Notes: a model not told the origin generated them from the sequence alone. DNA of 49,930 bases from Betaproteobacteria bacterium (GCA_020346185.1 CP070775.1:3092809-3142738), one strand, 5' to 3'. Positions 1 to 13,566 are shown, numbered from the stretch's first letter. A program made the numbers and translations.

Positions 1-219
1 CTTCGTCGAGGCTCTGCACGCCTCCAGGGGTCGCATCCCCGCAAGCGGGGCCCCTGCTCTTCCCTTCCGTCGTGCCCCCACAAGAAGACTCGCGACCTTT
101 CCCCGAATGAATACGCACCGCGTAGACTCTGTTACATCTTCTTCGTCGAGGCTCTGCACGCCTCCAGGGGTCGCATCCCCGCAAGCGGGGCCCCTGCTCT
201 TCCCTTCCGTCGTGCCCCC
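1..219. repeat. Two identical 79-bp structured direct repeats (1-79 and 141-219) separated by 61 bp; REP-like
   Basis: cttcgtcgag...cgtgccccc is identical at 1 and 141. It contains hairpins GAGGC-n7-GCCTC and CCCCGC-AA-GCGGGG, the latter enclosed by AGGGG/CCCCT. The first copy may extend beyond the window edge. Confidence 0.9.
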
Positions 220-281
220 TCACTCCTCACGCCTAACCCCTCACCGCTTTCTCGTCACTGGCCACTGGTCGCTGGCTCTCG
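218..281. repeat. Degenerate heptamer tandem repeats
   Basis: cctcact-cctcacg-cctaacc-cctcacc (218-245), then gtcactg-gccactg-gtcgctg-gctctcg (254-281). Confidence 0.7.
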
Positions 282-482
282 CGCCGCCAACATTTCGGCC
301 ACCTCGCTCAGTTCAAGGTCCGGCCTGCGCCGGCAAAGATCATCAACAGCGTCCCGGCCGTATTGCTCGTACAACTCGTTCAACTTGTTGTCCCTCTGCC
401 ACAGCTGCTGCGTTCCCAGCAACTCGTCGAGTTCGGCATGCAGCGGCGTGTGGTTGTCAAACTCACCTGTCCATTGGGTCAT
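255..482 (-). CDS. Small acidic hypothetical protein (75 aa), paralog of 12025-12216
   Basis: Strong RBS (caggaggtaacg-ATG) before ATG 482; ELY..Y...L....P.LE pattern and upstream promoter shared with the ORF at 12025. Confidence 0.75.
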   Translation of the reverse strand: MTQWTGEFDNHTPLHAELDELLGTQQLWQRDNKLNELYEQYGRDAVDDLCRRRPDLELSEVAEMLAAREPATSGQ

Positions 483-515
483 CGTTACCTCCTGTGAGGT
501 CATTTAGACAGGTGC

Positions 516-568
516 AGTATGAGAATCCAGCATGGACACGCTGTACCGAGTGCGCCGGTCATTTGACC
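516..568 (-). promoter_or_regulatory. Putative promoter/operator of the small-protein family (GGTCA-AA-TGACC palindrome, GGTACAGCG, CATACT -10-like box)
   Basis: Aligns with 11937-11990 with near-identical spacing to the start codon. Confidence 0.6.
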
Positions 569-722
569 CATGGCGTCAAACAAAGTCGCCCAGAGCGCAA
601 ATCGCCAGATAAAAGATGTGTAAACGGCGGGAGAACGGAAACCGGTGCTGACGCAGCCGGCGTTGAATCCAAGTCGTCTGACGGCCACGGCCCACGCCGT
701 GGCCGTCAGAACGCAGGCGATA

Positions 723-1586
723 TCAGGTGACGAACACCGGATCGCCCACGCGGATCGGGGCGCCGGTCGCTATCATTCCGTAGACGCCGACATTCTGGTC
801 GGCATCCCGAATGACGGTCCGAAGAATCGTTTTGTCAATCTTGAGCTGCGGCTGGGCGCGAGTCGTCGCACCGCATCGCGGTGTCGCCCCGGCACAATCG
901 ATCGTCGCATCTCCGATCTTGATCTGCTTTCCGACCCACTCCTGTTCGAGAAGCCCGTCAGCACCGGCGTCGGTCTCGATAAGAATGTTTGGTCGAAAGC
1001 GACGGCGATCCCAGTCGGCCTGTGAATTCTTGCTTTTCAAATACGCCAGTGTCGCAGTGGTGACAACGTGGATCGGTGTTACCAGGAAGAACGTCCCGGG
1101 AAAGGACACGTAGTCAACCAGCGGCGGCGGCAGCTGACTGAAATCGGGGAGCGGTTCTCCAGGCTCGCGATCGAAAGTGGCTTTGAGCTCCTCCAGCCAG
1201 GTATGGTCATCCAGCTTGTGGCGCTTGTAGAAGTCAACATCGGACTCAGGACGCAGCGCCTCCAGAGTCGATGGATGGCCAACCAGTGTCGACAACTTCT
1301 CATGGATCTCCGCACGTTCGCTGCCAAGTTCCAGCCCGTCAGGGAAGGTAACGTCCACATTGCTCACCGGATCTGTCGACGGCTCGCCTCGGACACGCGC
1401 GGAACACAGCAGCAACTCGGGACGAAACTTGCAGCTTTGAATTTCTTTTCTCGCGGTGTCGCGCAGCGCCCAGATACGGTCACCGCTCAATCCCTTCTCG
1501 GTCAGCGCACATGACTCAAGGGGTTCCCCGGCCATCCCTTTAACAGGGTAGCGCCAGATTTCCTTGATTGTCCCAACTTGCGACAT
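723..1586 (-). CDS. MOSC domain-containing protein (mARC/YcbX-like, N-terminal beta-barrel)
   Basis: IWRYPVKGM, GDRIWAL, RRFRPNILI, TPRC (Moco-ligating Cys), IRVGD motifs. Confidence 0.92.
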   Translation of the reverse strand: MSQVGTIKEIWRYPVKGMAGEPLESCALTEKGLSGDRIWALRDTARKEIQSCKFRPELLLCSARVRGEPSTDPVSNVDVTFPDGLELGSERAEIHEKLSTLVGHPSTLEALRPESDVDFYKRHKLDDHTWLEELKATFDREPGEPLPDFSQLPPPLVDYVSFPGTFFLVTPIHVVTTATLAYLKSKNSQADWDRRRFRPNILIETDAGADGLLEQEWVGKQIKIGDATIDCAGATPRCGATTRAQPQLKIDKTILRTVIRDADQNVGVYGMIATGAPIRVGDPVFVT

Positions 1587-1897
1587 TAGTTTTTCTCCTC
1601 CTTTTCGTTTGAACTGATGCCCCTCGTACGCCTATCAACAAGATGATGGGCCATCACGTGGTCGCCGCTTACTATGGAAATCCTTTGCCACCGGCACCAT
1701 GAAATGCGGACTTTGCGGTCCGCACCTTTCTCTGTCAAGGCAGCACAGCGAAGCACCTGTTCTGGTTGCGTGGGCCTCGCGGACTGCATGGTACACTGCC
1801 CCCCGCACACCCCGAGCGGTGCCTATGAAAGCGCTGCAACCACGCAACCACCGTTGCACACCAAACAATAACTGCCTGTCAGGGAAGAAGAAACAAA

Positions 1898-3214
1898 GTG
1901 GCTGCAATCATCAAGCAAGGCAAGAAGATTGACGACGCAGAGCCATCGACCGACGCGCCGATCGCAAGTACAGGGCGACGTCATTTCCTGAAAGCATCGT
2001 CGGCTGTTGCCGGCACTGCACTTTTAGGAGGAGTCGTCGGGTGTGGAGAAACGGCGGAAGCCGGACCGATTCATGTCGCCAGCATGTTCGACGTAACCGG
2101 TGGTCTGAGCATTTACGGCGAACCCGAAATGAACGTTTCCCGTATGGCGATCGAACATATCAACGAATCCGGCGGCGTGCTCGGCCGTCAGGTAAAGCTG
2201 CACGAGTACGACACGCAGTCGAAGATCGAGCTTTATTCACGTTACGCTCAGGAAATCAGCGCCAACGACGACATCTCGATTGTCGTGGGCTGCATTACCG
2301 GTGCATCGCGTGAGGCTGCCCGGCCGATTCTGACCAAGAACAACAAGCTGCTGTTCTTCCCGAGTGTTGACGAAGGCGGTGAATGCGACAAGTACTGCTT
2401 CATGCAAGGTGCTGATTGCCTTCAGATGGAAACGCCGCTGGTTGATTGGGCCATCAAGAACGCAGGCAACAAGTTCTATGTAGTCGCGGCCGACTACGTA
2501 TATGGCCACGTTGCAACGGCATGGACCAAGAAACTGGTGGCCGATGCCGGCGGATCCGTCGTCGGGGTGGAATTCATTCCGCTTGATGTGTCCGATTTCG
2601 GAGCGACGATTCGCCGCATCCAGACGGCACAGCCGACGGTCATCATGAGCAACCTGGTAGGCGGAAACCACATGGCGTTCTACCGCCAGTTCGCCGCTGC
2701 CGGCCTTAACCAGAAGATACGGATCGTCTCGCCGTCGTTCGGATTGGGCAACGAACAGCAGGTACTTGCGCCGGAAGAAACCAAGGGCATCGTTGTTGCG
2801 TACTCTTATTTTGAGACGCTCGACAATCCCGAGAACAAAGCCTTCGTCGCGGCTTATCGTGAAAAGCATCCCGATGCCGGACCGCTGATGGATCTCCCGG
2901 CACAGGTGTGGAATGGCTGGTATCAATGGAAGGCGGCTGTTGAGAAGGCCGGCTCAACGGAAATCGATACAGTCGTCGCCGCGATGGAATCCGGAATGCC
3001 GTTCAATGGCCCAAGCGGAAAAGTCGTGATGGATGCGACCTCACATCGCAACATTCAGGACATCAATCTCGCGAGAGTGAACAGCAAACGAGAGTTCGAG
3101 ATCCTCGACACCCAAAGTCAGGTACGCCCGGCGACAACAGTCCCTGGGTCCGAGTCGTGCGATTTGGTCGGCAAGGACAAGAACTCGCACCGGATGATTC
3201 TGCCGAACACCTGA
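1898..3214 (+). CDS. Urea/short-chain amide ABC transporter substrate-binding protein (UrtA/AmiC-like), Tat signal
   Basis: TGRRHFLK twin-arginine motif followed by a possible lipobox (VVGC); INESGGVLGRQV, SREAARP, ADYVYG motifs; start codon uncertain. Confidence 0.85.
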   Translation: MAAIIKQGKKIDDAEPSTDAPIASTGRRHFLKASSAVAGTALLGGVVGCGETAEAGPIHVASMFDVTGGLSIYGEPEMNVSRMAIEHINESGGVLGRQVKLHEYDTQSKIELYSRYAQEISANDDISIVVGCITGASREAARPILTKNNKLLFFPSVDEGGECDKYCFMQGADCLQMETPLVDWAIKNAGNKFYVVAADYVYGHVATAWTKKLVADAGGSVVGVEFIPLDVSDFGATIRRIQTAQPTVIMSNLVGGNHMAFYRQFAAAGLNQKIRIVSPSFGLGNEQQVLAPEETKGIVVAYSYFETLDNPENKAFVAAYREKHPDAGPLMDLPAQVWNGWYQWKAAVEKAGSTEIDTVVAAMESGMPFNGPSGKVVMDATSHRNIQDINLARVNSKREFEILDTQSQVRPATTVPGSESCDLVGKDKNSHRMILPNT

Positions 3215-3241
3215 CCAACACCGATTCGTCGGGAACTCGCC

Positions 3242-4108
3242 ATGGACGAGATCGTCGTCATCGGCCTATCGGTCCTGACGAGCGTTGCGATCCTGTTGTT
3301 GACGTCGCTCGGTCTTGCCGTGGTTTTCGGGCTGATGCGCATCGTCAACATGGCGCATGGCGAATTCCTGATGATCGGAGCCTTCACGACGACCGTCGCA
3401 GTCCGGTCACTCGAACTGCCGATATGGCTGGCAATTCTGTGTGCCCCGATCGTATGTGGATTCGTTGGTGCGCTGGTGGAACTTGCATTCATTCGACCGC
3501 TTTATGGCCGGCGCTTGGTCGACACACTCTTGGCAACGTTTGCTCTCAGCCTGATTCTTTATCAGGTCGCCATCAACATTTTTGGCACCGCGCCGCCCGG
3601 AATTGGCACCCCGTCTGGCTGGATTGAAATTGGCCGCTACACGGTTTCGTATTACTCGCTTTTTCTGCCGGTAGCGGCACTCGTCATTACTGCCTTGCTT
3701 TACGTGTTGTTCAAGTTCACCCGATACGGATTGCTTGCGCGCGCGGCCGCGCATAATCCTGATATGGCGAGCGTGCTCGGCGTCGAAGTGCGACGCGTCA
3801 ATCTCGTTACGTTCGCGTTGGGCTGCGCGCTGGCAGGGCTCGGCGGTGGACTGCTGTCGCCCATGGTGGCCGTCAGTCCCGGTGTCGGCCAGACCTACAT
3901 CGGCCAGGCATTCATGACCGTGATCACCGGTGGGCCGGCTTTCCTGCTCGGAACGCTGTCTGCCTCGGTACTGCTTGGCGGCATCTCGAACATTGTTTCG
4001 CAGTTGTTCACGACCCTCTGGGGTCTGACAGCATTGCTGGTCACAGCCATCGTGCTGGTGCGGCTTCTCCCGAACGGGATATCGGGAAGCTGGTCGCGGC
4101 AACTCTGA
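3242..4108 (+). CDS. Branched-chain/urea ABC transporter permease (UrtB/LivH-like)
   Basis: GLAVVFGLMRIVNMAHGEFLMIG and TRYGLLARA motifs. Confidence 0.92.
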   Translation: MDEIVVIGLSVLTSVAILLLTSLGLAVVFGLMRIVNMAHGEFLMIGAFTTTVAVRSLELPIWLAILCAPIVCGFVGALVELAFIRPLYGRRLVDTLLATFALSLILYQVAINIFGTAPPGIGTPSGWIEIGRYTVSYYSLFLPVAALVITALLYVLFKFTRYGLLARAAAHNPDMASVLGVEVRRVNLVTFALGCALAGLGGGLLSPMVAVSPGVGQTYIGQAFMTVITGGPAFLLGTLSASVLLGGISNIVSQLFTTLWGLTALLVTAIVLVRLLPNGISGSWSRQL

Positions 4109-4150
4109 AATGGCGCGACGCGTAATCCGCGCACCCCGCGTCCTGTGGCG

Positions 4151-5986
4151 ATGACTGCATCAACCTGGACGACGACGCTCGGTCGCTGGACGCGGGTTGC
4201 CGTGCGACGCGGCTTTCTTTGGCCGACCATCGCCGTAGTCGCCGTACTCTTGCTCTCACCGCTTCTGTCGACGTCAACCGAACTTAAGTGGACCTTATGG
4301 CTGGCCTTCGGCATTCTGGCTCTGAGTCTGACGCTTGTCTGGGGTATCTCCGGGATATTCAGTTTCGGACAGAATGCCTTCTTCGGCATTGGCGGTTACA
4401 CCTTTGCCGTGGCAGCGTTCAACATCTATCCGGCCACGGGTGAAACACTCTCTGCGTTGCTGATTGCTGCCTGCGTCGCAGCGTTGTTCACGGCCCTCCT
4501 CGGGTACGTCACCTTCTATGGCCGGGTCGGCGATGTTTACCTGGCTATTGTCACCCTCGCTGTCACGCTGATTCTCTACACCGTCATGTCGAGCACCGCC
4601 GGCCCTGAATATCGGATCGGCAAGGCATATCTTGGTGGTTTCAACGGCATGCCTTCTGTTCCGGGCATTGCGTTCGGCACAGGTGAGTTGGGTTACGGCG
4701 GGCTGTTTGCCTTTGCCGTGTGCCTCGCAGGCGCTCTGTATATCTTTGCGCGTTTCTTGCTGACCGGGCAGTACGGACAGATACTGGCCGGGATCAGGGA
4801 AAACGAGATGCGGATGGAATTGCTGGGCTACAACGTCAGATTCCACAAGCTGGGCATTTTTTTGGTAGGCGGAGCCATAGCCGGAATTGGAGGCGGTTTG
4901 TTTACCGCCTGGGGCACTTTCATCAATCCATCGGTCTTTAGCCTGCAGCAGGCCGCGCTGGTGGTGATCTGGGTCATGGTTGGCGGACGCGGTTCCTTGG
5001 TGGGAGCGTTTGTCGGCGTCGCAGTAGTACAGTGGATCTCGGATCAGGCAGACAAGATAGTCGCCCAACAAACGCCGCTGATCCTTGGAATCATGCTACT
5101 GGCGATGGTACTCGCTTTTCCGGGCGGCATCGTGCCAGCCATTACCCGGTGGCTTGATCGCACATGGAACAGCAGCAAGCGCAAACTGGACACAATCGAC
5201 GTAGCGCCCACTCCAACGCCGCGCACCGATACAAAACCGGAAAGCGAAAACGAGGGCACGCCGTTGCCGAGTGGACACATCATGGCGCACCATCTGGGAA
5301 AACGCTTCGGCGGATCGGTCGCCCTCGACGATGTCACGCTCGAATTCGGGCAACACAATATTCATGCGATCGTCGGACCCAACGGCGCCGGCAAGAGCAC
5401 ACTGTTCGGGCTGATTTCCGGCCAGCATAAGGTCACCAAGGGGGACGTCGAACTCAACGGCCTGGACGTGACTCGCATGCCGACCCACCAGCGCGCACGG
5501 CACGGACTCGGCATCAAGCTTCAGGTGCCGAGCATTTTCCTGGGACTGAGTGTGCAACAGAACATCGCGCTTGCCCTGAACGCGCCGCGCAAGTACAAAC
5601 GCACACGCCCGCCGGCAACAACAGTGTTCGCCATGATCGGATTGCTGGAGAAAAAGCACGAAGCTGCATCGAACCTTTCGCATGGCGAGCAGCAGTGGCT
5701 CGAGATCGGAATGCTCATTGCTCAAAACCCGTCGGTGATGCTATTCGACGAACCCGCCGCCGGGATGACGCAGGAAGAGCGCAAACGCACTGTCGAGCTG
5801 ATAAAGAAGTTGTCGATCCACCATACCGTAATCGTTGTCGAACATGATATGGCCTTTGTTCGCGCGCTCGGCGCGCCGGTGGTTATGCTCTATCGCGGCA
5901 ACGTCTTCCGCCATGGCAGCTTCGACGAGCTGAGTAACGACAACGACGTCAGAAACATCTACCTCGGTAGAAAACGCGGTGCTTAA
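4151..5986 (+). CDS. Fused ABC permease + ATP-binding protein (UrtC-UrtD / LivM-LivG-like)
   Basis: N-terminal SFGQNAFFGIGGY and IRENEMRMELLGY; C-terminal GPNGAGKST, LSHGEQQWLEIG, DEPAAG, VEHD. Confidence 0.92.
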   Translation: MTASTWTTTLGRWTRVAVRRGFLWPTIAVVAVLLLSPLLSTSTELKWTLWLAFGILALSLTLVWGISGIFSFGQNAFFGIGGYTFAVAAFNIYPATGETLSALLIAACVAALFTALLGYVTFYGRVGDVYLAIVTLAVTLILYTVMSSTAGPEYRIGKAYLGGFNGMPSVPGIAFGTGELGYGGLFAFAVCLAGALYIFARFLLTGQYGQILAGIRENEMRMELLGYNVRFHKLGIFLVGGAIAGIGGGLFTAWGTFINPSVFSLQQAALVVIWVMVGGRGSLVGAFVGVAVVQWISDQADKIVAQQTPLILGIMLLAMVLAFPGGIVPAITRWLDRTWNSSKRKLDTIDVAPTPTPRTDTKPESENEGTPLPSGHIMAHHLGKRFGGSVALDDVTLEFGQHNIHAIVGPNGAGKSTLFGLISGQHKVTKGDVELNGLDVTRMPTHQRARHGLGIKLQVPSIFLGLSVQQNIALALNAPRKYKRTRPPATTVFAMIGLLEKKHEAASNLSHGEQQWLEIGMLIAQNPSVMLFDEPAAGMTQEERKRTVELIKKLSIHHTVIVVEHDMAFVRALGAPVVMLYRGNVFRHGSFDELSNDNDVRNIYLGRKRGA

Positions 5987-6713
5987 CGTTACCGATCTGT
6001 TTGCCGGCTACGGGGAAAGCACGGTCATTACCGGTCTCGAGCTTGAGCTGGATACAGGTCAAATCGTTACGATTCTTGGTCGCAACGGCATTGGCAAAAC
6101 CACGCTGGTCAAAACGCTTGCCGGTATGATCAATGCTCAGCGCGGTCGAATAGCTTTTGAAGGCCAGGACATCACCAACGCCTCGCCGCCCCGCCGCGCG
6201 CGACTGGGCATAGGCTACGTACCGCAGGGCCGGGAGATCTTTGCCAAGCTGACCGTCCGGGAGAATCTATTGGTGGGCGTTCACGCGAGGCGTTTGCCGG
6301 TTTCCTTGGTCGACGAAACGCTCGAGTACTTTCCCACGCTGCGACCGAAACTCAAGGACCTGGGTGGCAGTTTGAGCGGCGGGCAACAACAGCTTCTTGC
6401 GTTGGCCCGCGCGCTGGCGGTCCAGCCGAAGCTGCTTTTGCTCGACGAGCCTTCAGAAGGCATTCAGCCTTCCTCGCTCGACGATATCTACCAGCTTCTG
6501 ATGCGCGCAAAGCAGCGCAGCGGATTGTCGATCCTGTTGGTAGAACAAAACCTCGATTTCGCAGGAGCGCTGGCCGATCGGGCGTTCGTCATGGACCACG
6601 GACGAATTGCGCGAGAGGTCGACCACACCAAGCTGCTGAGCAATGCCGACCTCGAACACGAGTATCTCGGCGCGGACGACGACGTTACGCTTTCCGATCC
6701 TTTTGGCCGGTGA
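5979..6713 (+). CDS. ABC transporter ATP-binding protein (UrtE/LivF-like)
   Basis: GRNGIGKTT, YVPQGREIF, LSGGQQQ, LDEPSEGIQPS; overlaps the upstream stop. Confidence 0.93.
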   Translation: MLNVTDLFAGYGESTVITGLELELDTGQIVTILGRNGIGKTTLVKTLAGMINAQRGRIAFEGQDITNASPPRRARLGIGYVPQGREIFAKLTVRENLLVGVHARRLPVSLVDETLEYFPTLRPKLKDLGGSLSGGQQQLLALARALAVQPKLLLLDEPSEGIQPSSLDDIYQLLMRAKQRSGLSILLVEQNLDFAGALADRAFVMDHGRIAREVDHTKLLSNADLEHEYLGADDDVTLSDPFGR

Positions 6714-6730
6714 ATCGGCAGCGACCTCCC

Positions 6731-7165
6731 TTAGTTGCCTACCGCTTCCTTACCCTCGCCACCGATACGCGTCGCAAAGTAACCGATCACCAAACCGACA
6801 ATAGCGCCCTCGAGCGTGAACCAGAACGGCGATGCAAGCACGCCATTTGCGCCAAAGAACGCGATCATCAGCTCTTCCATCACGTCGTAGGCAAAGAACG
6901 TCAGCACAAAATTCATCCACGCCCCCACCATTGGCGCGCGAAACCACCACGGCAGCGGCATCTTGAGTACCGGGTGGTAGGTAAACACCCCGAACACGCC
7001 GATGATCGCGCCCACGGTCGTATACCAAAGCAGGATTCCCCATGCCGTCAACCATCCCGTTTCGGGATATAACGCGACAATAAACACAAAACCGGCCAGC
7101 CCAAACGCCAGGCCGATCGCCTTGCCTACAGCCACGCGCACCATTAACGAAGGTTTCTCAGACAT
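6731..7165 (-). CDS. Small integral membrane hypothetical protein
   Basis: 144 aa with about 4 hydrophobic segments; RBS-like aagggg upstream. Confidence 0.75.
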   Translation of the reverse strand: MSEKPSLMVRVAVGKAIGLAFGLAGFVFIVALYPETGWLTAWGILLWYTTVGAIIGVFGVFTYHPVLKMPLPWWFRAPMVGAWMNFVLTFFAYDVMEELMIAFFGANGVLASPFWFTLEGAIVGLVIGYFATRIGGEGKEAVGN

Positions 7166-7278
7166 GCGACACCCCTTTCAGAAATCCAGCATTTCTCGGC
7201 AAACAAATACAACGCCTAAATCACAGCTCGCGACGATACGTCTGGCGCGCATCCTCGGCGCTACTGATCAAAGCACAG

Positions 7279-7734
7279 TCACTCTGGCCGTTTCGCGAGA
7301 ATGTGCACGATCGACATCGTCAGGACAGTCTCATCACGCTGATTCACCATGCGATAACCCATGCGCAAGATGCCGCGATCCGGCTTCGAGCCCGACGGGC
7401 GTATTTCCAGGACCTCGGCTTCGGTATAGATGGTATCGCCAGGCCTTACCGGCGCCGTCCAACGCAACTCGTCGACGCCTGGCGAGCCCATACTGCATGC
7501 CTTGAACAAACCTTCCTGCAGAAACATGCGCCAGCCGATCCCAAAGGTGTGCTGACCACTGGCGATCAGACCACCGTAGGCAGACTTCGCCGCCGCTTCT
7601 GCGTCAATGTGGAATGGTTGCGGATCATAGGCCAACGCGTAGTTGATGATGTCAGTCTCGGTCATGGTCGCCCCTCGCGAGCGGAATCGTTCGCCGACCT
7701 CGAAGTCATCAAAGTAACGGTCCATTGGCTTCAC
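7279..7734 (-). CDS. MaoC family dehydratase
   Basis: YFDDFEVG, YDPQPFHID, GGLIASG, LRWTAPVRPGD. Confidence 0.92.
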   Translation of the reverse strand: MKPMDRYFDDFEVGERFRSRGATMTETDIINYALAYDPQPFHIDAEAAAKSAYGGLIASGQHTFGIGWRMFLQEGLFKACSMGSPGVDELRWTAPVRPGDTIYTEAEVLEIRPSGSKPDRGILRMGYRMVNQRDETVLTMSIVHILAKRPE

Positions 7735-7793
7735 ACGTCCAGTTCCAATATGCGCGTGTGTATTTTACGCTCCTGCCGCGACCCGCTCAGACG

Positions 7794-8774
7794 CTAGGCG
7801 AATACGTTCTTGTTGACGACGTGATCCATGTTTGGCTTTCCGTCCAGCACATCAAGCATATTTTGCACGGTCGCCACAGCCATGCGATCGAAAGCCTCTA
7901 CCGTCAATCCTGCGATGTGAGGGGCCGTAACGACGTTCGGCAACTTGAACAAAGGATTGGCCGGCTGCGGCGGTTCCTGATCAAACACGTCCAGTCCCGC
8001 CCCCGCGATGGTGCCTTCGGTCAGTGCTGAGTGCAGCGCGGATTCGTCAATGATGCCGCCGCGCGCGGTGTTGATAAGGTATGCCGATGACTTCATGCAC
8101 GCGATGTGTGCGTCATCGAACATACCCTCGGTTTCACTGTTTCTGGGGCAATGGATCGTGACAAAGTCGGCGTGGCCAAGCGCCGCATCGAGTCCGTCGA
8201 CACGAGTACAACCTGTTGTAGTAATGTCAGCAGCGGCGACGTAAGGGTCGTAGACCAACACCGTCATGCCAAGTGCCAGGCACGTCAACGCAATCCGCGA
8301 TCCGATGCGGCCGAATCCCACAACTAACAGCGTCTTGCCGGAAAGATCGACCGGCATCTCGCTTAACCGCTCCGCCCAGCGATTCTCGCGCACCATCAAA
8401 TCAAACACTTTGCCGCGTTTGGCAAGTGCCAACATGAAGAACAACGCCTGCTCCGCTACCGAGGACGAGTTGGCGGTGCCCGATACCATTAGCGGTATCT
8501 TGTGCCTCGCCAGGGCCGCCACATCGACAGTGTCATAACCCACTCCGATGCGCGCGACAACGCGCAGGTTCGGGGCAGCTTGCAGCTCTGCATCGCCGAA
8601 CGGCGTCAGTCCGAGCGCCACGCCGTGGGCATCGCAAAGCAAGGCATGAAATTGCGCGGTCGGAATATTGCCCTCAAAGGCGATCGCTTCGACACCGGCG
8701 CGTGCGTTGGCTACGTCCCAACCGGCACCTGCCATAGTCGAAGGGAGCAAGAGTTTCATTTTCTTATTGCACAT
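7794..8774 (-). CDS. D-isomer-specific 2-hydroxyacid dehydrogenase (SerA-like)
   Basis: RIGVGYDTVD, GFGRIG, INTARG, AGLDVF, PHIAG. Confidence 0.92.
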   Translation of the reverse strand: MCNKKMKLLLPSTMAGAGWDVANARAGVEAIAFEGNIPTAQFHALLCDAHGVALGLTPFGDAELQAAPNLRVVARIGVGYDTVDVAALARHKIPLMVSGTANSSSVAEQALFFMLALAKRGKVFDLMVRENRWAERLSEMPVDLSGKTLLVVGFGRIGSRIALTCLALGMTVLVYDPYVAAADITTTGCTRVDGLDAALGHADFVTIHCPRNSETEGMFDDAHIACMKSSAYLINTARGGIIDESALHSALTEGTIAGAGLDVFDQEPPQPANPLFKLPNVVTAPHIAGLTVEAFDRMAVATVQNMLDVLDGKPNMDHVVNKNVFA

Positions 8775-9214
8775 GGTCGCATGATCCCCGAAGTTGAGTT
8801 TTCGCTTCTAACGCCACCGAGCAACACGACGTTCCATAACAATTCGCACTAACCCGACAAGTGCGCGCCGACCCTACCGCATTATTCTATGCAAGGTAGC
8901 AATAGGGATCCGCTTTTGCGGGGAATGCAGCCTCCTCCGGCGATTGATGATAACGAGTGGGCGTCGCGAGCTCGAAAGAAAGCTACCAGCCTAACGAACT
9001 TCCATGCCAGTAATTTCCAGCAGTTTTGCTTATCAGTCGGTCGAGTGACGGCGTGTCACGGATCCCAATCCGCAAGAGATATCGGGTTGACCTCGAATAC
9101 AGCCTGCGCGGCTACGACTCGCGCGGAGGACGACTGGACGTGCTGCTCCGATACAAAAAGGTGGCCACAGCAGCCGGCACTGTCATGTCATTGTGCACAG
9201 GTCGCTCGCTTAGG

Positions 9215-11560
9215 CTATCGGGGGATCAAGGTCTGCCGCGTTTCAGCGGCTTCGACAATGTCGTCCCACTCCCAGAGTTGGGGAATGGTCTGAACATCGG
9301 CCCACATTCGCGCTTGATCGGCAAAATGCAAACTCCCGGGATGACCGGAGCTGCCTAGCGGAACGATCCAACGCGAGCGCCGCCAATCCGATGGATCGTG
9401 AATATAGCGATTGACAGACATCAGTGTCTGCACAAATCGATCGACCATCGAGTAGCCGCCTGCCTGTGGAGTATCGCCGTCGCCATCCGCCGGAATCTCC
9501 GGCGGATCGAGAAGATGCGCATGCTCCGGGAATATCCGGGACAGCGGGTGTCGCGGTCGGGTATGGTGAATCGCACCCCAGGTCCAGTCTTGCATGTCCC
9601 CGCCCAATCGATTCCGCAACTCGGAAACGGCGCTAGCAATCGCCCGTTCAATCAAGTCCGGCCAGTTTTGACCCGGATCGAGGCGGCCGCCATCGTTCGC
9701 CGCCATCGCGGCGACAGCCTCGGCATAAAGTTGATTGGCATGCGTTGCCGCGCCCCGTCCAATGCCGGTCGGCGCACCGAGGGCTTCCTCGGACATTGGT
9801 CCTAATTCCGCTTTGATGACCTCTTCATACAAGTAGCTGCGTGCCGTGCCATAGATCGCCGCGGCGGCAGACGTACGATCCATTCTGCCATTCCACTGCA
9901 GCAGGATGTCACACGCCCTCGCCAGTTGCGGTTCGGATGAGTCCAGCTCCTTCAGGCGGTCAATAAGCACGCGTGCCGGCAGCGACACCCGGTCCGCGTG
10001 GATGGCCGCCATATCTGAAACTGTTGCGCTCCCGGACAGGTTCTGAAGCCGCGCCGTAATCCGCCGGGCGCGGAAGTCCGGGGCGAAAAAGGTGTTGATG
10101 TAGTAGGGATAGTCAGCGCCCGTGGGAGCGTTGTTGCAGGTCACGACAAAACCGGCCTCGGGATTGCGTGCGTGTGGCAGTTCCTCGAAGGGGATCTGAC
10201 CATCCCATTCATGTTCACCGGTCCATCCCGGTACCGCAGACCATGCATTCGCCATTGTACGTAGCGGGATCCGCCCTCGGTAGCGATAACCGAACTCGCC
10301 GTGCACATCCGCGTAGACAAAATTGTTGACCGGCTCCGTCCACTCGCGCAACGATTCTTCCACTTCGTCGGCGGTTGTGGCGACAAGAAGCTCGTGAATG
10401 GTGTTGACCCAGGCAGTAGCGCTGTTCGTCCCGGTATGGGAAAAGGCAATGCCGTGGCCTGCCGCCGGATCGCCCGCGATGATCGGCCCGTGCCGGGTTC
10501 GCACCACCTTCAAGTGCTCCACTTCACCCTCGTGCACTTCCAGTTCTTCGTCAGACACCTCAGCGGGCAGCCACGTGTCCTGGTACGAATATTCAAGGCG
10601 ACAACTTTCAGTGCGAAAGCGCTCGACGTACAAATCCTGGTAGTCCGCAACACCGTGGGTCATGCCCCATGCCACGTATGCCGTGTGACTAAAATGCGGC
10701 GCACCCGGTAGACCGGGCAGCGCGTAACCACTGACCCGAAATGCCGGGCAGTTCATATGCACCTGGTAATAAACGTTGGGTGTATCCAGAGCGCGATGCG
10801 AGTCGCCGGCAAGCAGCGGCTTGCCTGATTCCGTTCTGGCACCGGAAAGCACCCACGCGTTACTGCCAAAATCCGTCTCGCTCAGCCAGTTGAATTCCGC
10901 TGCGGCCTTTGCCAACGCATCCAGGCAATCGAGGGGCGGGCCCCGGTACGTGTCTCCCGGAGGCACCGCAACCAGACCATCTTCCGGATAGCCGCGAAAC
11001 AGCGCTGCGGCGCGTTCAGGCCCCAGCGTCAGTGCGAGCCTGGCCCGCCACAGTTTCATCTCGTAGGTGCCCATGAACATGTTGCGGATTTTGTAGACGG
11101 CCAGGCAGTGCCATGACTCCCACGGCTGCGGTGTGGTCTCGAGGATTCGATACTCGATCGGCAGCGTCTGGGTCGTTGCAATGAATGCGTTCACACCCGC
11201 TGCGTAGGCATCCAGCATTGCCTGCGCGGCCGTGCTGGACACCGCGTAGTCCGCGCGCGCCGCCCGCGCAAGCGCGAACGGTCGCATCAACCGGTCTTCG
11301 CTCAGGCCCACCGTTCCCACCAACTTCGACCAACAGCCCAGTGCCCGCTGACGATCGCAATCCATTTGCCAAAGGCGGTCCTGAGCAGTCACGAAGCCTT
11401 GCGCAAAAAACACATCATGTTCCGTCGTTGCGCGAACGTGGGGAACACCCCAACGGTCCCGGATCACGTCCACGGGAGCCTCCAGACCCTCGACCGGCAC
11501 TGCCGACGTGACATCGGGAAGCGCAGCTTGAAGGTCAGCTAACGTGATCGAAGTAGGCAT
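9215..11560 (-). CDS. Penicillin acylase family (S45) Ntn hydrolase
   Basis: RDRWGVPH, AQDRLWQMD, GSNAW (catalytic Ser), HGPII, GSSGHPGS. Start set at MPTSITL because the longer ORF extension lacks family features. No signal peptide. Confidence 0.92.
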   Translation of the reverse strand: MPTSITLADLQAALPDVTSAVPVEGLEAPVDVIRDRWGVPHVRATTEHDVFFAQGFVTAQDRLWQMDCDRQRALGCWSKLVGTVGLSEDRLMRPFALARAARADYAVSSTAAQAMLDAYAAGVNAFIATTQTLPIEYRILETTPQPWESWHCLAVYKIRNMFMGTYEMKLWRARLALTLGPERAAALFRGYPEDGLVAVPPGDTYRGPPLDCLDALAKAAAEFNWLSETDFGSNAWVLSGARTESGKPLLAGDSHRALDTPNVYYQVHMNCPAFRVSGYALPGLPGAPHFSHTAYVAWGMTHGVADYQDLYVERFRTESCRLEYSYQDTWLPAEVSDEELEVHEGEVEHLKVVRTRHGPIIAGDPAAGHGIAFSHTGTNSATAWVNTIHELLVATTADEVEESLREWTEPVNNFVYADVHGEFGYRYRGRIPLRTMANAWSAVPGWTGEHEWDGQIPFEELPHARNPEAGFVVTCNNAPTGADYPYYINTFFAPDFRARRITARLQNLSGSATVSDMAAIHADRVSLPARVLIDRLKELDSSEPQLARACDILLQWNGRMDRTSAAAAIYGTARSYLYEEVIKAELGPMSEEALGAPTGIGRGAATHANQLYAEAVAAMAANDGGRLDPGQNWPDLIERAIASAVSELRNRLGGDMQDWTWGAIHHTRPRHPLSRIFPEHAHLLDPPEIPADGDGDTPQAGGYSMVDRFVQTLMSVNRYIHDPSDWRRSRWIVPLGSSGHPGSLHFADQARMWADVQTIPQLWEWDDIVEAAETRQTLIPR

Positions 11561-11936
11561 GCGGGCGCCGATATCGCAAGCATCAATGTTTTCATTTGTC
11601 GTTCTTAATGACCAAGTGATTTCCAAAGTTATGTTGTCACATGGAACACTGAGGTAGCCGAAGTATCGGACAACTTCCGTCCAGGACTGCGAGAGACGTT
11701 TGCCCGGCACGTTACCACTATTCATCGAGCATAGCAGAACGCAAACCACTTCCTTCGACGTTAACGGCTCGCGCCGGCACTGGCGCACTTGATGCCAAAG
11801 AAGAGCGCACGTTAGCACGCGATCCTCGTTTCGCATTCACGATGCTTGCATCTCCTCGCGCATAGCAGCTCAGCGCTCGACCTCCGGATTGTCTTTTCAT
11901 ACAAATATTTCCGGGCAAAAGCGGATTGTCGCGATC

Positions 11937-11990
11937 GGTCAAACAACCGGCGGCTCAGGTACAGCGCGCGACAAGCCACAAATCCATACT
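11937..11990 (+). promoter_or_regulatory. Putative promoter of the small-protein family
   Basis: ggtcaaacaaccggcg..ggtacagcg..catact, homologous to 516-568 (-). Confidence 0.6.
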
Positions 11991-12024
11991 TCAGCCATTG
12001 AGAGGACAACAACAGGAGAGGAAC

Positions 12025-12216
12025 ATGACTCGCAAAGTGGCTGAAGCCCGACCTCAAACGCCGACGACAATGGATGGAGACATGCCGGCAATCCGTTTGC
12101 CGACGCAAACATATCGTCAACGACAAGTCGATGAACTTTACGATCTATATGACCTGGTAATGATCGAACGTTTGCTTAAGGGCCACCCTAGCCTGGAAGA
12201 ACTCATTGGCTCTTGA
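12025..12216 (+). CDS. Small hypothetical protein (63 aa), paralog of 255-482
   Basis: RBS caggagaggaac-ATG; followed by a terminator; RQRQVDELYDLY...HPSLEEL motif. Confidence 0.75.
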   Translation: MTRKVAEARPQTPTTMDGDMPAIRLPTQTYRQRQVDELYDLYDLVMIERLLKGHPSLEELIGS

Positions 12217-12225
12217 GTGCGAGCG

Positions 12226-12265
12226 CCCCGGGCGGCTTCCCTCCTTGGTCGCCCGGGGATCTTTT
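12226..12265 (+). terminator. Intrinsic terminator with CU-rich (CCUCC) loop
   Basis: ccccgggcggc-ttccctccttg-gtcgcccgggg-atctttt. Confidence 0.8.
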
Positions 12266-12288
12266 CTGCTGCCCGCCCCGTCAAGTGC

Positions 12289-12556
12289 AGTCACTAGCAC
12301 GGCCTGCTCGTACAAAAAGACAAGAGCCTGACGCAATACTGCAAAGTGAACGTACAACTCGAGGCAGAAGATCGGTGCAACACAAGGTGCAAGACCAGAG
12401 CAGAAGTTCGCACTGGCAACCAGTGAGAACTTCCAGACTCAGGCAACAAACGCGTCACGTTTTTGAGCACTACGATGTATGTCACTTTTCCGTGATTCAA
12501 ACTCGCATTCATGCGTCATTTCTACCCGTAAAGACTCATTGACTCTCAAATATTTT
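12289..12556 (+). pseudogene. Degenerate tandem copy of the small-protein gene unit
   Basis: Remnant promoter (cggc..gctcgtaca..aatact); translation QTRHVFEHYDVCHFSVI aligns to RQRQVDELYDLYDLVMI; 3' end actcattgactct matches actcattggctct; no clean start and an apparent frameshift. Confidence 0.6.
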
Positions 12557-12600
12557 GCCCTGGGTGACCTTCCTCCCTGGGTCCCCCGGGGTTTCTTTTT
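12557..12600 (+). terminator. Second intrinsic terminator with CCUCC loop, homologous to 12226-12265
   Basis: gccctgggtgacc-ttcctccctg-ggtcccccggggt-ttcttttt. Confidence 0.75.
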
Positions 12601-12763
12601 GAGCATTACCATCGAGGGCAACGCAACTGCACGCAACTTGCCGACCAGCACGGCAGCCACAAATCGCGAAACGCGAATGATTATCCGGATACTCAGCGGG
12701 CTGGCCGCATCTGTTACTTACATTACTCCTTGCGCCGCACATGCAATTAAAAATGCATTGCAG

Positions 12764-12785
12764 GACGTCGCTATACAACGACGAG
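12764..12785 (+). promoter_or_regulatory. Candidate enhancer/operator box GACGTCGC-N8-GACGAG (copy 1)
   Basis: The same motif occurs at 29027-29048, 74 vs 75 nt before the sigma54 -24 GG; it contains CGTC-N10-GACG dyad symmetry. Confidence 0.6.
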
Positions 12786-12835
12786 TTCGTTTCATCGCAT
12801 GTCATTACGTTCCTGTTTACAAAATACAAACGATA

Positions 12836-12852
12836 GGGGCACATGACTTGCT
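12836..12852 (+). promoter_or_regulatory. Sigma54 (-24/-12) promoter
   Basis: GGGGCAC-ATGAC-TTGCT with GG-N10-GC spacing; position is conserved relative to the riboswitch. Confidence 0.7.
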
Positions 12853-12922
12853 GAAGGCAAGGGGACACACTTCATAACGTAAAGCTGCGATGTCTGCGAC
12901 GATTACGATGTGGTGTGTCGAC

Positions 12923-13012
12923 GCCTGAAAAGGGCAAGCCAGTTCAAAAGGCTGGCAGGTAAAGCCTCTTGCCTAAATTCCGAAAACGGACATGGCAGCG
13001 GGGCCGCCAGGC
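12923..13012 (+). ncRNA. Variant c-di-GMP-I (GEMM) riboswitch
   Basis: gcctg-aaaaGGGCAAGCC...AAAGCCTCTTGCCTAA...ATGGCAGCGGGGCCGC-caggc follows the GEMM-I layout, but the P2 loop is CAAAA and GACGCAAAG is replaced by CAGGTAAAG. Confidence 0.7.
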
Positions 13013-13212
13013 AAACTCATCGTGCGACACGCGACCAGGTGCCGCCACGGTGAGAACGGCGGGCCCATGGTCGGGAGACCTGGTCAGAGTTGCAGCTATC
13101 GCACGAGCAGCTGTTCGCCGTCGTACTGCCTTCGCCTTTGCACCTGGTTCATCGCCCTTTCTCAGGAACAATGAGTCTCACTCAAATAGCTCAAGAAGAG
13201 GAGAACCTGAAA

Positions 13213-13566
13213 ATGAAAAAACGCATCACTTGGATCGTTTCGTTGCTTGCCCTTGCAGCAGTCCACTCTGCAATTGCAGCGCCTCCACACGGAAAGGCAA
13301 ACATCCTGCACTGCGGCTGCGTTCTCGACGCAGCAAGTGGAGATCCGGCCATGGCGTTCGTCAACGTGAATACCAGCAGCAAGGCGAAAGGCCACGCCCG
13401 GCACGGCGAAAGCAGCATCGACTCGTGCTATGACGGCGTTGACAGCTTCGTTGACTTTCAGCGAACTGCCGACGATTGCCAGATCGATGGCGCAGAGCTC
13501 GCCGGTCTTGCCCAATGCTCTTCAGAGCAAGCCGGTAACCCCTGTGGAGAACAAGTACTCGAGTAA
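13213..13566 (+). CDS. Secreted Cys/His-rich hypothetical protein (117 aa)
   Basis: RBS gaggagaa; Sec signal MKKRITW...AIA; 6 Cys; ILHCGC...GHARHGE motif. Confidence 0.85.
   Translation: MKKRITWIVSLLALAAVHSAIAAPPHGKANILHCGCVLDAASGDPAMAFVNVNTSSKAKGHARHGESSIDSCYDGVDSFVDFQRTADDCQIDGAELAGLAQCSSEQAGNPCGEQVLE

Follow-up and report, generated by a model that had tools for sequence, protein, structure and literature searches.

Two short open reading frames (ORFs), read from opposite strands and preceded by similar DNA, raise the question of whether they belong to one family of small proteins under common control and, if so, what controls it. The ORFs, here named A and B, lie in a 49,930-nucleotide stretch of the genome of a Betaproteobacteria bacterium (G000:C1:3092809-3142738; from one 3.6-Mb contig, 57% G+C), referred to here as the window. 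An earlier note on this DNA had proposed a three-copy family of small acidic proteins with a conserved promoter. The relatives named by the searches are metagenome-assembled genomes (MAGs) labelled Betaproteobacteria or Burkholderiales. The overall picture is one of a familiar regulatory type and unfamiliar proteins. Coordinates are collected in Table 1.

Both ORFs occupy the positions given in the earlier note, and its gapless 28-residue alignment of the two products, with nine identities, was reproduced. The two proteins are only about 25-30% identical. BLASTP of A against B gives 19 of 60 identities with an E value of 2e-4 as a single comparison. In tblastn searches of the whole genome, the reciprocal matches have E values of 5.4 and 3.6, and seven unrelated matches score higher for each query; the pairwise protein match is therefore not significant on its own. 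The homology is established by two other lines of evidence. The A and B profiles align end to end in hhalign (probability 92%, E = 6.8e-7, 57 colinear columns). Bridging relatives in genomes G006, G002, and G004 combine an A-like start, MN(H/R)W(T/K).E.D (MTQWTGEFD in A), with a B-like end, ..ALYGLHNYVVLD.LLKRHLHLD. Judged by these comparisons, A and B are distant, diverged paralogues of one family.

Relatives of A number 19 matches, of which 17 are near-full-length, with 74-82 amino acids (aa) and 61-89% identity. B has three matches, itself included, and more members were found in genomes of the genus. A profile of both subtypes, run against 1.84 billion representative proteins, gave 24 matches at E ≤ 1e-3, and 20 of these are 37-119 aa long. 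The core among these matches is RQRQxDELYDLYDxVMIExLLKRHPxL, and many of them begin with M-x-R/H-W-T/N-x-E-x-D. The four long matches (620-1155 aa) were dropped; the two inspected are a tandem-repeat protein and, by reading, an ankyrin-like repeat protein. The A-type alignment found two genome loci and three metagenome loci when run against contigs. Metagenome loci L028 and L029 were dropped, as they lie inside longer ORFs, share only the common word LLGTQQLW, and were read as thioredoxin/DsbA-like. The B-type alignment found no related loci in genome contigs or metagenome contigs. An A-profile match in G003 (L004, E = 5.5e-4) was judged to be chance because it lies within another reading frame and has no promoter module of the kind described below. 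In one protein of 94 aa (P0009) from a 697-bp contig, a PAS-like N-terminus (PF13188, PF00989) precedes a segment that is 98% identical to the last 59 residues of A. With so short a contig, the fusion could be genuine or an artefact of chimeric assembly.

The family was found in few genomes. The A profile matched three of 61 related genomes, and the B-type profile matched four of the 401 sampled genomes of the order; these four belong to a single genus out of 167. Among the genomes searched by these profiles, the family is found only in the window's own genus, a group of uncultured sediment bacteria.

When A is compared with two orthologues, the ratio of non-synonymous to synonymous substitution rates (dN/dS) is 0.16. 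Comparison of the B2 genes of G006 and G002 gave a dN of 0.076 in the C-terminal half, where dS is saturated, and a dN of 0.53 in the N-terminal half. By these measures, A and B are real genes under purifying selection. The AlphaFold2 (AF2) model of A has helices at residues 15-41, 43-52, and 58-67, with a mean predicted local distance difference test (pLDDT) value of 69.6. In the model of B, pLDDT is about 90 across residues 31-50, and the N-terminal 29 residues are of low confidence. In the PDB, Foldseek returned no match for the A model at E ≤ 0.001; the 20 matches at E ≤ 10 are without exception unspecific fragments of three helices. The VIA wide search of the same model found none of 48,161 chains at Z ≥ 5 (best Z 4.4), and the ESM Atlas search gave no usable match.

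That A and B belong to a real small-protein family, as had been claimed, is borne out. Neither protein has a match in Pfam or NCBIfam, and the relatives are listed as 'hypothetical protein' in their sources. The family is undescribed until now, with members of 58-75 aa that are predicted to be cytoplasmic and helical. The label 'acidic' suits A (isoelectric point, pI, 4.4) and this B (pI 5.2) but not the family, in which pI, computed for 15 members, lies between 4.4 and 9.8. The label 'toxin-like' does not hold either; no sign of a toxin was seen, and the genes are solitary, no partner gene being conserved beside them. 'Regulator' and 'adaptor', the other roles suggested in the earlier note, are conjectural. 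A type II toxin-antitoxin pair was rejected, since A and B are monocistronic with their own promoters (B also with its own terminator) and their neighbours differ between genomes.

The third copy claimed in the earlier note is also present, in decayed form, directly after B. Its DNA aligns to the B gene plus terminator with z = 10.6, and none of 300 shuffles reached the score. AATACTGCA, the terminator hairpin, and a remnant of the leader are still present in this unit, which has lost the homologous start codon and has a stop and a frameshift near the end of the frame. The module model and the family profile both score below threshold on it. The alignment identifies the third unit as a pseudogenised tandem duplicate of B.

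The B-type genes of four genomes, together with the third unit, end in an 11-12 bp G+C hairpin. For B and the third unit, the predicted free energies are -28.3 and -27.2 kcal/mol, respectively, and a T run follows both. The stem covaries (3 of 11 pairs with double changes), and the 9-12 nucleotide (nt) loop UUCCCUCC(C)UU is kept in all five copies. The loop sequence UUCCCUCC may be an anti-Shine-Dalgarno seed of a 3'-derived RNA. This opens another reading, that the units act as RNAs, beside or instead of coding, with a small RNA derived from the 3' end. Retention of the loop while the stem covaries would suit such a role, as would the poor conservation of the N-terminal half of the B-type protein. 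The strong protein-level constraint on the C-terminal half speaks against it. No terminator of this kind follows the A-type gene (folding of 190-257 (-) gives z = 0.06), and no Rfam match lies inside the units, the sole match at E ≤ 0.1 in positions 1-13000 being the riboswitch at 12923. An RNA function is considered very unlikely.

The DNA upstream of A aligns with that upstream of B, as the earlier note had reported (z = 13.5; none of 500 dinucleotide shuffles reaches the score). Of the two spacings it gave, that between GGT and the -10 hexamer (47 nt in A, 48 nt in B) is correct. The other, 34 and 35 nt between the -10 hexamer and ATG, differs from the present count, which is 33 and 34 nt from the end of the hexamer or 39 and 40 nt from its start. 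An additional ATG at position 503 falls in the leader of A; it is not kept as an ATG in the other modules. A motif search followed by an nhmmer profile found exactly three modules in the genome, with E values from 1e-17 to 7e-15 and the next best at 0.5; all three belonged to the training set of the profile. The third module lies ahead of a secreted-protein gene, here named C, that is unrelated to A and B.

An alignment of ten modules, taken from five genomes and one metagenome contig, gives the consensus aTTGnCGC-N4-GGTcAA-N4-CcGGCGc-N4-GGTaCAGC-N19/20-nATACTGCA, in which the blocks are invariant or near-invariant. GGT and the -10 hexamer are 48 nt apart in nine modules and 47 nt apart in one, and the distance from the -10 hexamer to the start codon is 37-41 nt in all ten. 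The modules are kept between genomes in which synonymous sites are saturated.

The possibility was considered that the promoter similarity is a leftover of recent duplication and that the ORFs are not functional genes. B and the third unit are indeed tandem duplicates, one of them decayed. The A and B proteins, however, have diverged to the low identity given above, yet their upstream DNA aligns with the high score just cited; orthologous modules are kept where dS is saturated, the same module precedes non-homologous genes, and dN/dS is 0.06-0.17. Because the module is kept at saturated dS and precedes non-homologous genes, its similarity is best explained by selection, and the leftover explanation is barely credible.

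The module has the form of a direct repeat. Self-identity at a lag of 21 bp is 0.48, compared with 0.14-0.33 at all other lags from 5 to 29, and the two halves of the consensus agree at 12 of 21 positions. Within a single module, 7-13 of the 21 positions match at this lag, and the probability of at least 12 of 21 is 0.005, as estimated from 200,000 random genomic windows. The conserved columns cluster as two boxes per repeat, TTGnCGC with GGTnAA and CnGGCG with GGTnnAGC. The pattern of each repeat can be written as GnCGC-N4-GGTCA/GGTAC, and two such 21-bp repeats are followed by nATACT.

The earlier note had read GGTCA-N2-TGACC in this DNA as a classical operator, which would place a dimeric regulator, either repressor or activator, on an inverted repeat. 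Two modules of this genome, those of A and C, hold the palindrome in perfect form, it extends to 7-2-7 in C, and GGTCAA is among the most conserved blocks of the module. In the remainder of nine modules, the right arm matches at four of five positions in three, at three in three, and at two in one. The arm is thus weak, with two or three of five matches, in four of the nine modules, B included. The palindrome also lies about 45-60 nt upstream of the -10 hexamer, an unusual place for a repressor, and the conserved DNA, with its 21-bp period, reaches 20 nt beyond it in both directions. Since only two of nine modules hold the perfect palindrome, direct repeats fit better, and the inverted-repeat operator is judged unlikely.

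No sigma-70 consensus promoter (TTGACA-like -35, TATAAT-like -10, spacing of 16-18 nt, at least 9 of 12 positions) was found in 1-760 or 11800-12700. The nATACT hexamer matches TATAAT at four of six positions. If it is taken as the -10 with a 17-bp spacer, the predicted -35 hexamer would overlap the last 4 nt of the proximal box GGTACAGC. Sigma-54, sigma-28, sigma-32, and extracytoplasmic function (ECF)-type readings of the module were rejected for misfit of spacing in a comparison by eye with their consensus sequences.

Co-regulation is the natural expectation, since the family members have one conserved promoter module in common. That part of the earlier note, a shared conserved promoter, stands; the module is not private to the family, because it is also found ahead of the unrelated secreted protein C and, in a relative, ahead of a lipoprotein. 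The extent of the regulon was assessed with a module model, R1, built from sequence only and searched against 29 genomes of the taxonomic family. R1 matched seven of these, all in the window's genus (G000 and six of the seven others), and none of the 21 genomes from six other genera. It found 13 sites, ten of them at E ≤ 6e-11, and nine of those ten are training rows. The four new sites are listed in Table 1. The targets are small cytoplasmic proteins and exported proteins, none of a known family.

Two of the targets adjoin a regulator gene. AraC-1, an AraC/XylS-family protein of 370-374 aa (PF12625 and HTH_18), is divergent from C at a distance of about 120 bp in G000 and G007. The C orthologue in G007 is 151 aa long; it matches nothing in Pfam, and each of its 12 relatives is listed as a hypothetical protein. 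The NCBIfam models nearest to AraC-1 are QhpR and GliR, both below their cut-offs. AraC-2 is a paralogue with 52% identity to AraC-1 and is present in G000, G003, G004, G006, and G007. In G000, the AraC-1 gene occupies G000:242069-243187 and the AraC-2 gene G000:2643038-2644033. In all five carriers, it is followed by an orphan gene, D, of 84-88 aa (MDY.I....GE...S.EAHVLARAYRAAWR...), and the pair is thus present in five of the eight genus genomes. The module model matches the D promoter at four of the five loci, with E values of 2.8e-6, 0.002, 0.012, and 0.24, and is colinear over 44-68 of 72 positions; it has no match at the D locus of G003. D is unrelated to the A/B family, as hhalign gives a probability of 0.1%, and the two of the five D proteins that were scanned have no match in Pfam.

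The main argument that an AraC subfamily reads the module is that two paralogous regulators each adjoin a promoter of this class. AraC/XylS-type regulators, with AraC-1 and AraC-2 as the candidates, are on balance the likelier activators of the module. The sequences as a whole are probably best described as a small lineage-specific regulon of orphan genes driven by an AraC-type activator.

Several observations weigh against this description. The modules are related sequences, and counts across them are not independent. AraC-1 together with C occurs in only two of the eight genus genomes. Genome G002 (99% complete) has a strong module and a B2 gene, yet its AraC matches are only 27% identical; G001 has a weak module (E = 1.4e-3) and no AraC match at E ≤ 1e-20. 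Either another factor reads the module in these two genomes or the AraC assignment is wrong. No regulator gene was found beside A or B when 21 ORFs at five loci were scanned. A second dyad, TTGnC-N7-GnCAA, matches at four or five of five positions in seven of nine modules.

Taken together, the dyad, the two genomes with modules and without AraC paralogues, and the lack of a regulator gene beside A and B would suit a different factor. This could be a LysR-type tetramer on TTGnC-N7-GnCAA plus ACCG-N7-CGGT (which in the module RNA would form a stem of 3-4 bp at most) or a lineage-specific regulator encoded elsewhere, the AraC neighbours then being coincidental. Such a coincidence would have to account for two independent adjacencies of a paralogue and a module. 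The direct symmetry at lag 21 is also the strongest signal in the module, and no candidate gene of another family was identified. A different factor is regarded as possible but rather unlikely.

With an AraC-type activator, the regulon would work as follows. Each gene would form its own transcription unit, in which the module is followed by a short leader that bears a Shine-Dalgarno site, then by the ORF, and in B-type genes also by the conserved terminator. Two activator subunits would bind in tandem to the two 21-bp direct repeats, each of which combines a GnCGC box with a GGTCA/GGTAC box. The end of the proximal repeat would overlap the predicted -35 position, and the -10 hexamer nATACT follows at the fixed distance, so that the promoter would have no -35 of its own and would depend on the activator. 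The predicted regulon in this genome comprises A, B, and C, to which a relative would add the lipoprotein; transcription is presumed to start from the module in each case. The most likely activators are AraC-1, divergent beside C, and AraC-2, followed by D with its diverged module.

The function of the A/B proteins can be approached from their form. They have a conserved N-terminal tag and one conserved amphipathic helix. Because they are short, helical, and cytoplasmic, have this conserved helix, and are encoded by stand-alone genes in changing neighbourhoods, they may act by binding a partner protein. The contact might be made through the amphipathic helix, possibly with feedback on the activator by analogy with the ANR proteins discussed below; this suggestion is a tentative one and is given a low probability. 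Still more doubtful is the proposal that A and B are a new class of AraC/XylS anti-activators or co-factors, analogous to ANR proteins and unrelated to them in sequence. Were this so, the activator would switch A and B on from the module, and A and B would bind the activator by way of the amphipathic helix and tune or shut off the regulon of exported orphan proteins. Fast turnover of paralogues (A-type, B-type, pseudogene) would be part of such a system, and a further layer of control by RNA might come from the 3' hairpin of B-type genes.

Other features were observed near the units. Downstream of the third unit is a c-di-GMP-I riboswitch aptamer (RF01051), which matches the model over its full length and scores 41.7 bits (gathering score 35; E = 9.9e-7). 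The aptamer precedes an ORF with a signal-peptide-like N-terminus, MKKRITWIVSLLALAAVHSAIA. A G+C-rich repeat of 79 bp is present just downstream of A in two identical copies that are 140 bp apart. Elsewhere in the genome, it has a 94% identical copy and a 35-bp fragment. The DNA directly before the window reads N and may hide further copies. The DNA that separates the end of the ORF upstream of A from the A module contains a long, perfect inverted repeat, CTGACGGCCACGG...CCGTGGCCGTCAG, which looks like the terminator of that ORF. An 873-aa ORF is divergent from B, with its listed start about 90 nt from the B module; inspection by eye suggests a resemblance to penicillin/acyl-homoserine lactone (AHL) acylases.

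Table 1. Location of the A and B units, of related sites in other genomes, and of neighbouring features. Positions are counted from the first nucleotide of the window unless a genome or locus is named.
Feature	Position	Strand	Description
ORF A	255-482	-	75 aa, 8.7 kDa, pI 4.4; A-type family member; three helices predicted
Putative 5' leader of A	483-515	-	GGAGG (complement of 488-492) 7 nt ahead of ATG
Promoter module of A	516-581	-	-10 CATACT 516-521; proximal repeat ...CGGTACAGC 540-560; distal repeat TTTGACGCCATGGGTCAA... 561-581; model match 512-580
Promoter module of B	11924-11994 (G000:3104732-3104802)	+	Distal repeat ATTGTCGCGATCGGTCAA; proximal repeat ACCGGCGGCTCAGGTACAGC; -10 CATACT 11985-11990
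ORF B	12025-12216	+	63 aa; B-type; variable, low-confidence N-terminal 29 residues; predicted long helix 30-52, short helix 55-61
Predicted intrinsic terminator of B	12226-12265	+	12-bp G+C stem, C/U-rich loop UUCCCUCCU, T run
Decayed tandem copy of B unit	12262-12610	+	Proximal-repeat remnant, -10 AATACT 12335-12340, ORF remnant, terminator hairpin 12557-12592 and T run
B-type terminator hairpins, window	12226-12258; 12557-12592		B and third unit
B-type terminator hairpin, other locus	L012:590-630		
B-type terminator hairpin, other locus	L021:1433-1478	-	
B-type terminator hairpin, other locus	L015:1200-1246	-	
Module ahead of gene C	G000:243211-243280		Third module of the genome
AraC-2 and D locus	G000:C1:2643038-2644522		Outside the window; also L034-L036, L038, L039
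New R1 site, B2 gene	G004		E = 5.8e-11
New R1 site, lipoprotein gene	G007		249 aa; E = 9.2e-5
New R1 site, D promoter	G004		E = 3.9e-4
New R1 site, orphan ORF	G001		133 aa; E = 1.4e-3
79-bp repeat	1-79; 141-219		Identical copies
79-bp repeat, elsewhere	G000:C1:625785-625863; fragment 155094-155128		
Perfect inverted repeat	674-712		Putative terminator of ORF 723-1586
ORF upstream of A	723-1586	-	
873-aa ORF	9215-11836	-	Divergent from B
c-di-GMP-I riboswitch aptamer	12923-13011	+	RF01051
ORF with signal-peptide-like N-terminus	13090-13566	+	N-terminus lies inside this ORF

Small proteins are under-annotated and seldom come with a functional handle. Here, an orphan family is joined to a sharp module, a regulon of three to four genes, and two candidate regulators. 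Although the organism has not been cultured, a few assays of reporter activity and protein interaction in a heterologous host could be enough to reveal a function. If A and B feed back on AraC-type activators, small-protein control of the AraC/XylS family would reach beyond enteric pathogens and into an unrelated fold family. If they do not, the system would be a clean but ordinary lineage-specific regulon.

The same tandem-repeat architecture as in the module is found with AraC at araI, where araI1 and araI2 have a 21-bp register. The XylS site at Pm consists of two direct repeats of 15 bp, both with a box A (TGCA) and a box B (GGTA) (PMC5481539). Promoters of the XylS/Pm and AraC/araI type resemble the predicted layout of the module in having two tandem repeats, each of two short boxes about one helical turn apart, with the proximal repeat reaching the -35 region, a recognisable -10, and no consensus -35. 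Box B of XylS is also similar to the GGTCA/GGTAC box; box A differs (TGCA versus GnCGC), and the spacing between boxes is 6 nt rather than 4 nt. As in those systems, an AraC/XylS-family gene adjoins its target in the case of C and D; A and B, in contrast, are not adjacent to any regulator, and binding to the module is predicted only. AraC-1 and AraC-2 resemble QhpR, GliR, and VirS-type AraC proteins, in each case below the family cut-offs.

The ANR proteins, such as Aar of enteroaggregative E. coli, are smaller than 10 kDa, have three predicted helices, and are encoded by stand-alone genes; they are switched on by an AraC-family activator to which they bind back, and their signature consists of conserved A, E, A, W, A, W, and R positions (PMC4983702). 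A is similar in its size, its three predicted helices, and its position behind a probable AraC-type promoter. B-type proteins differ, as they are predicted to have one long and one short helix and a low-confidence N-terminus. The Pfam and NCBIfam scans showed no sequence relation of ANR proteins to A or B, the ANR signature itself not having been aligned. The host here is an uncultured environmental lineage rather than an enteric pathogen.

The A/B relatives bear the same label, and likewise have no Pfam domain, as the orphan 'hypothetical protein' sets of Betaproteobacteria and Burkholderiales MAGs. Unlike in those sets, the family here is delimited, its two subtypes are joined, selection on it is measured, and a shared cis-regulatory module with its predicted regulon is described.

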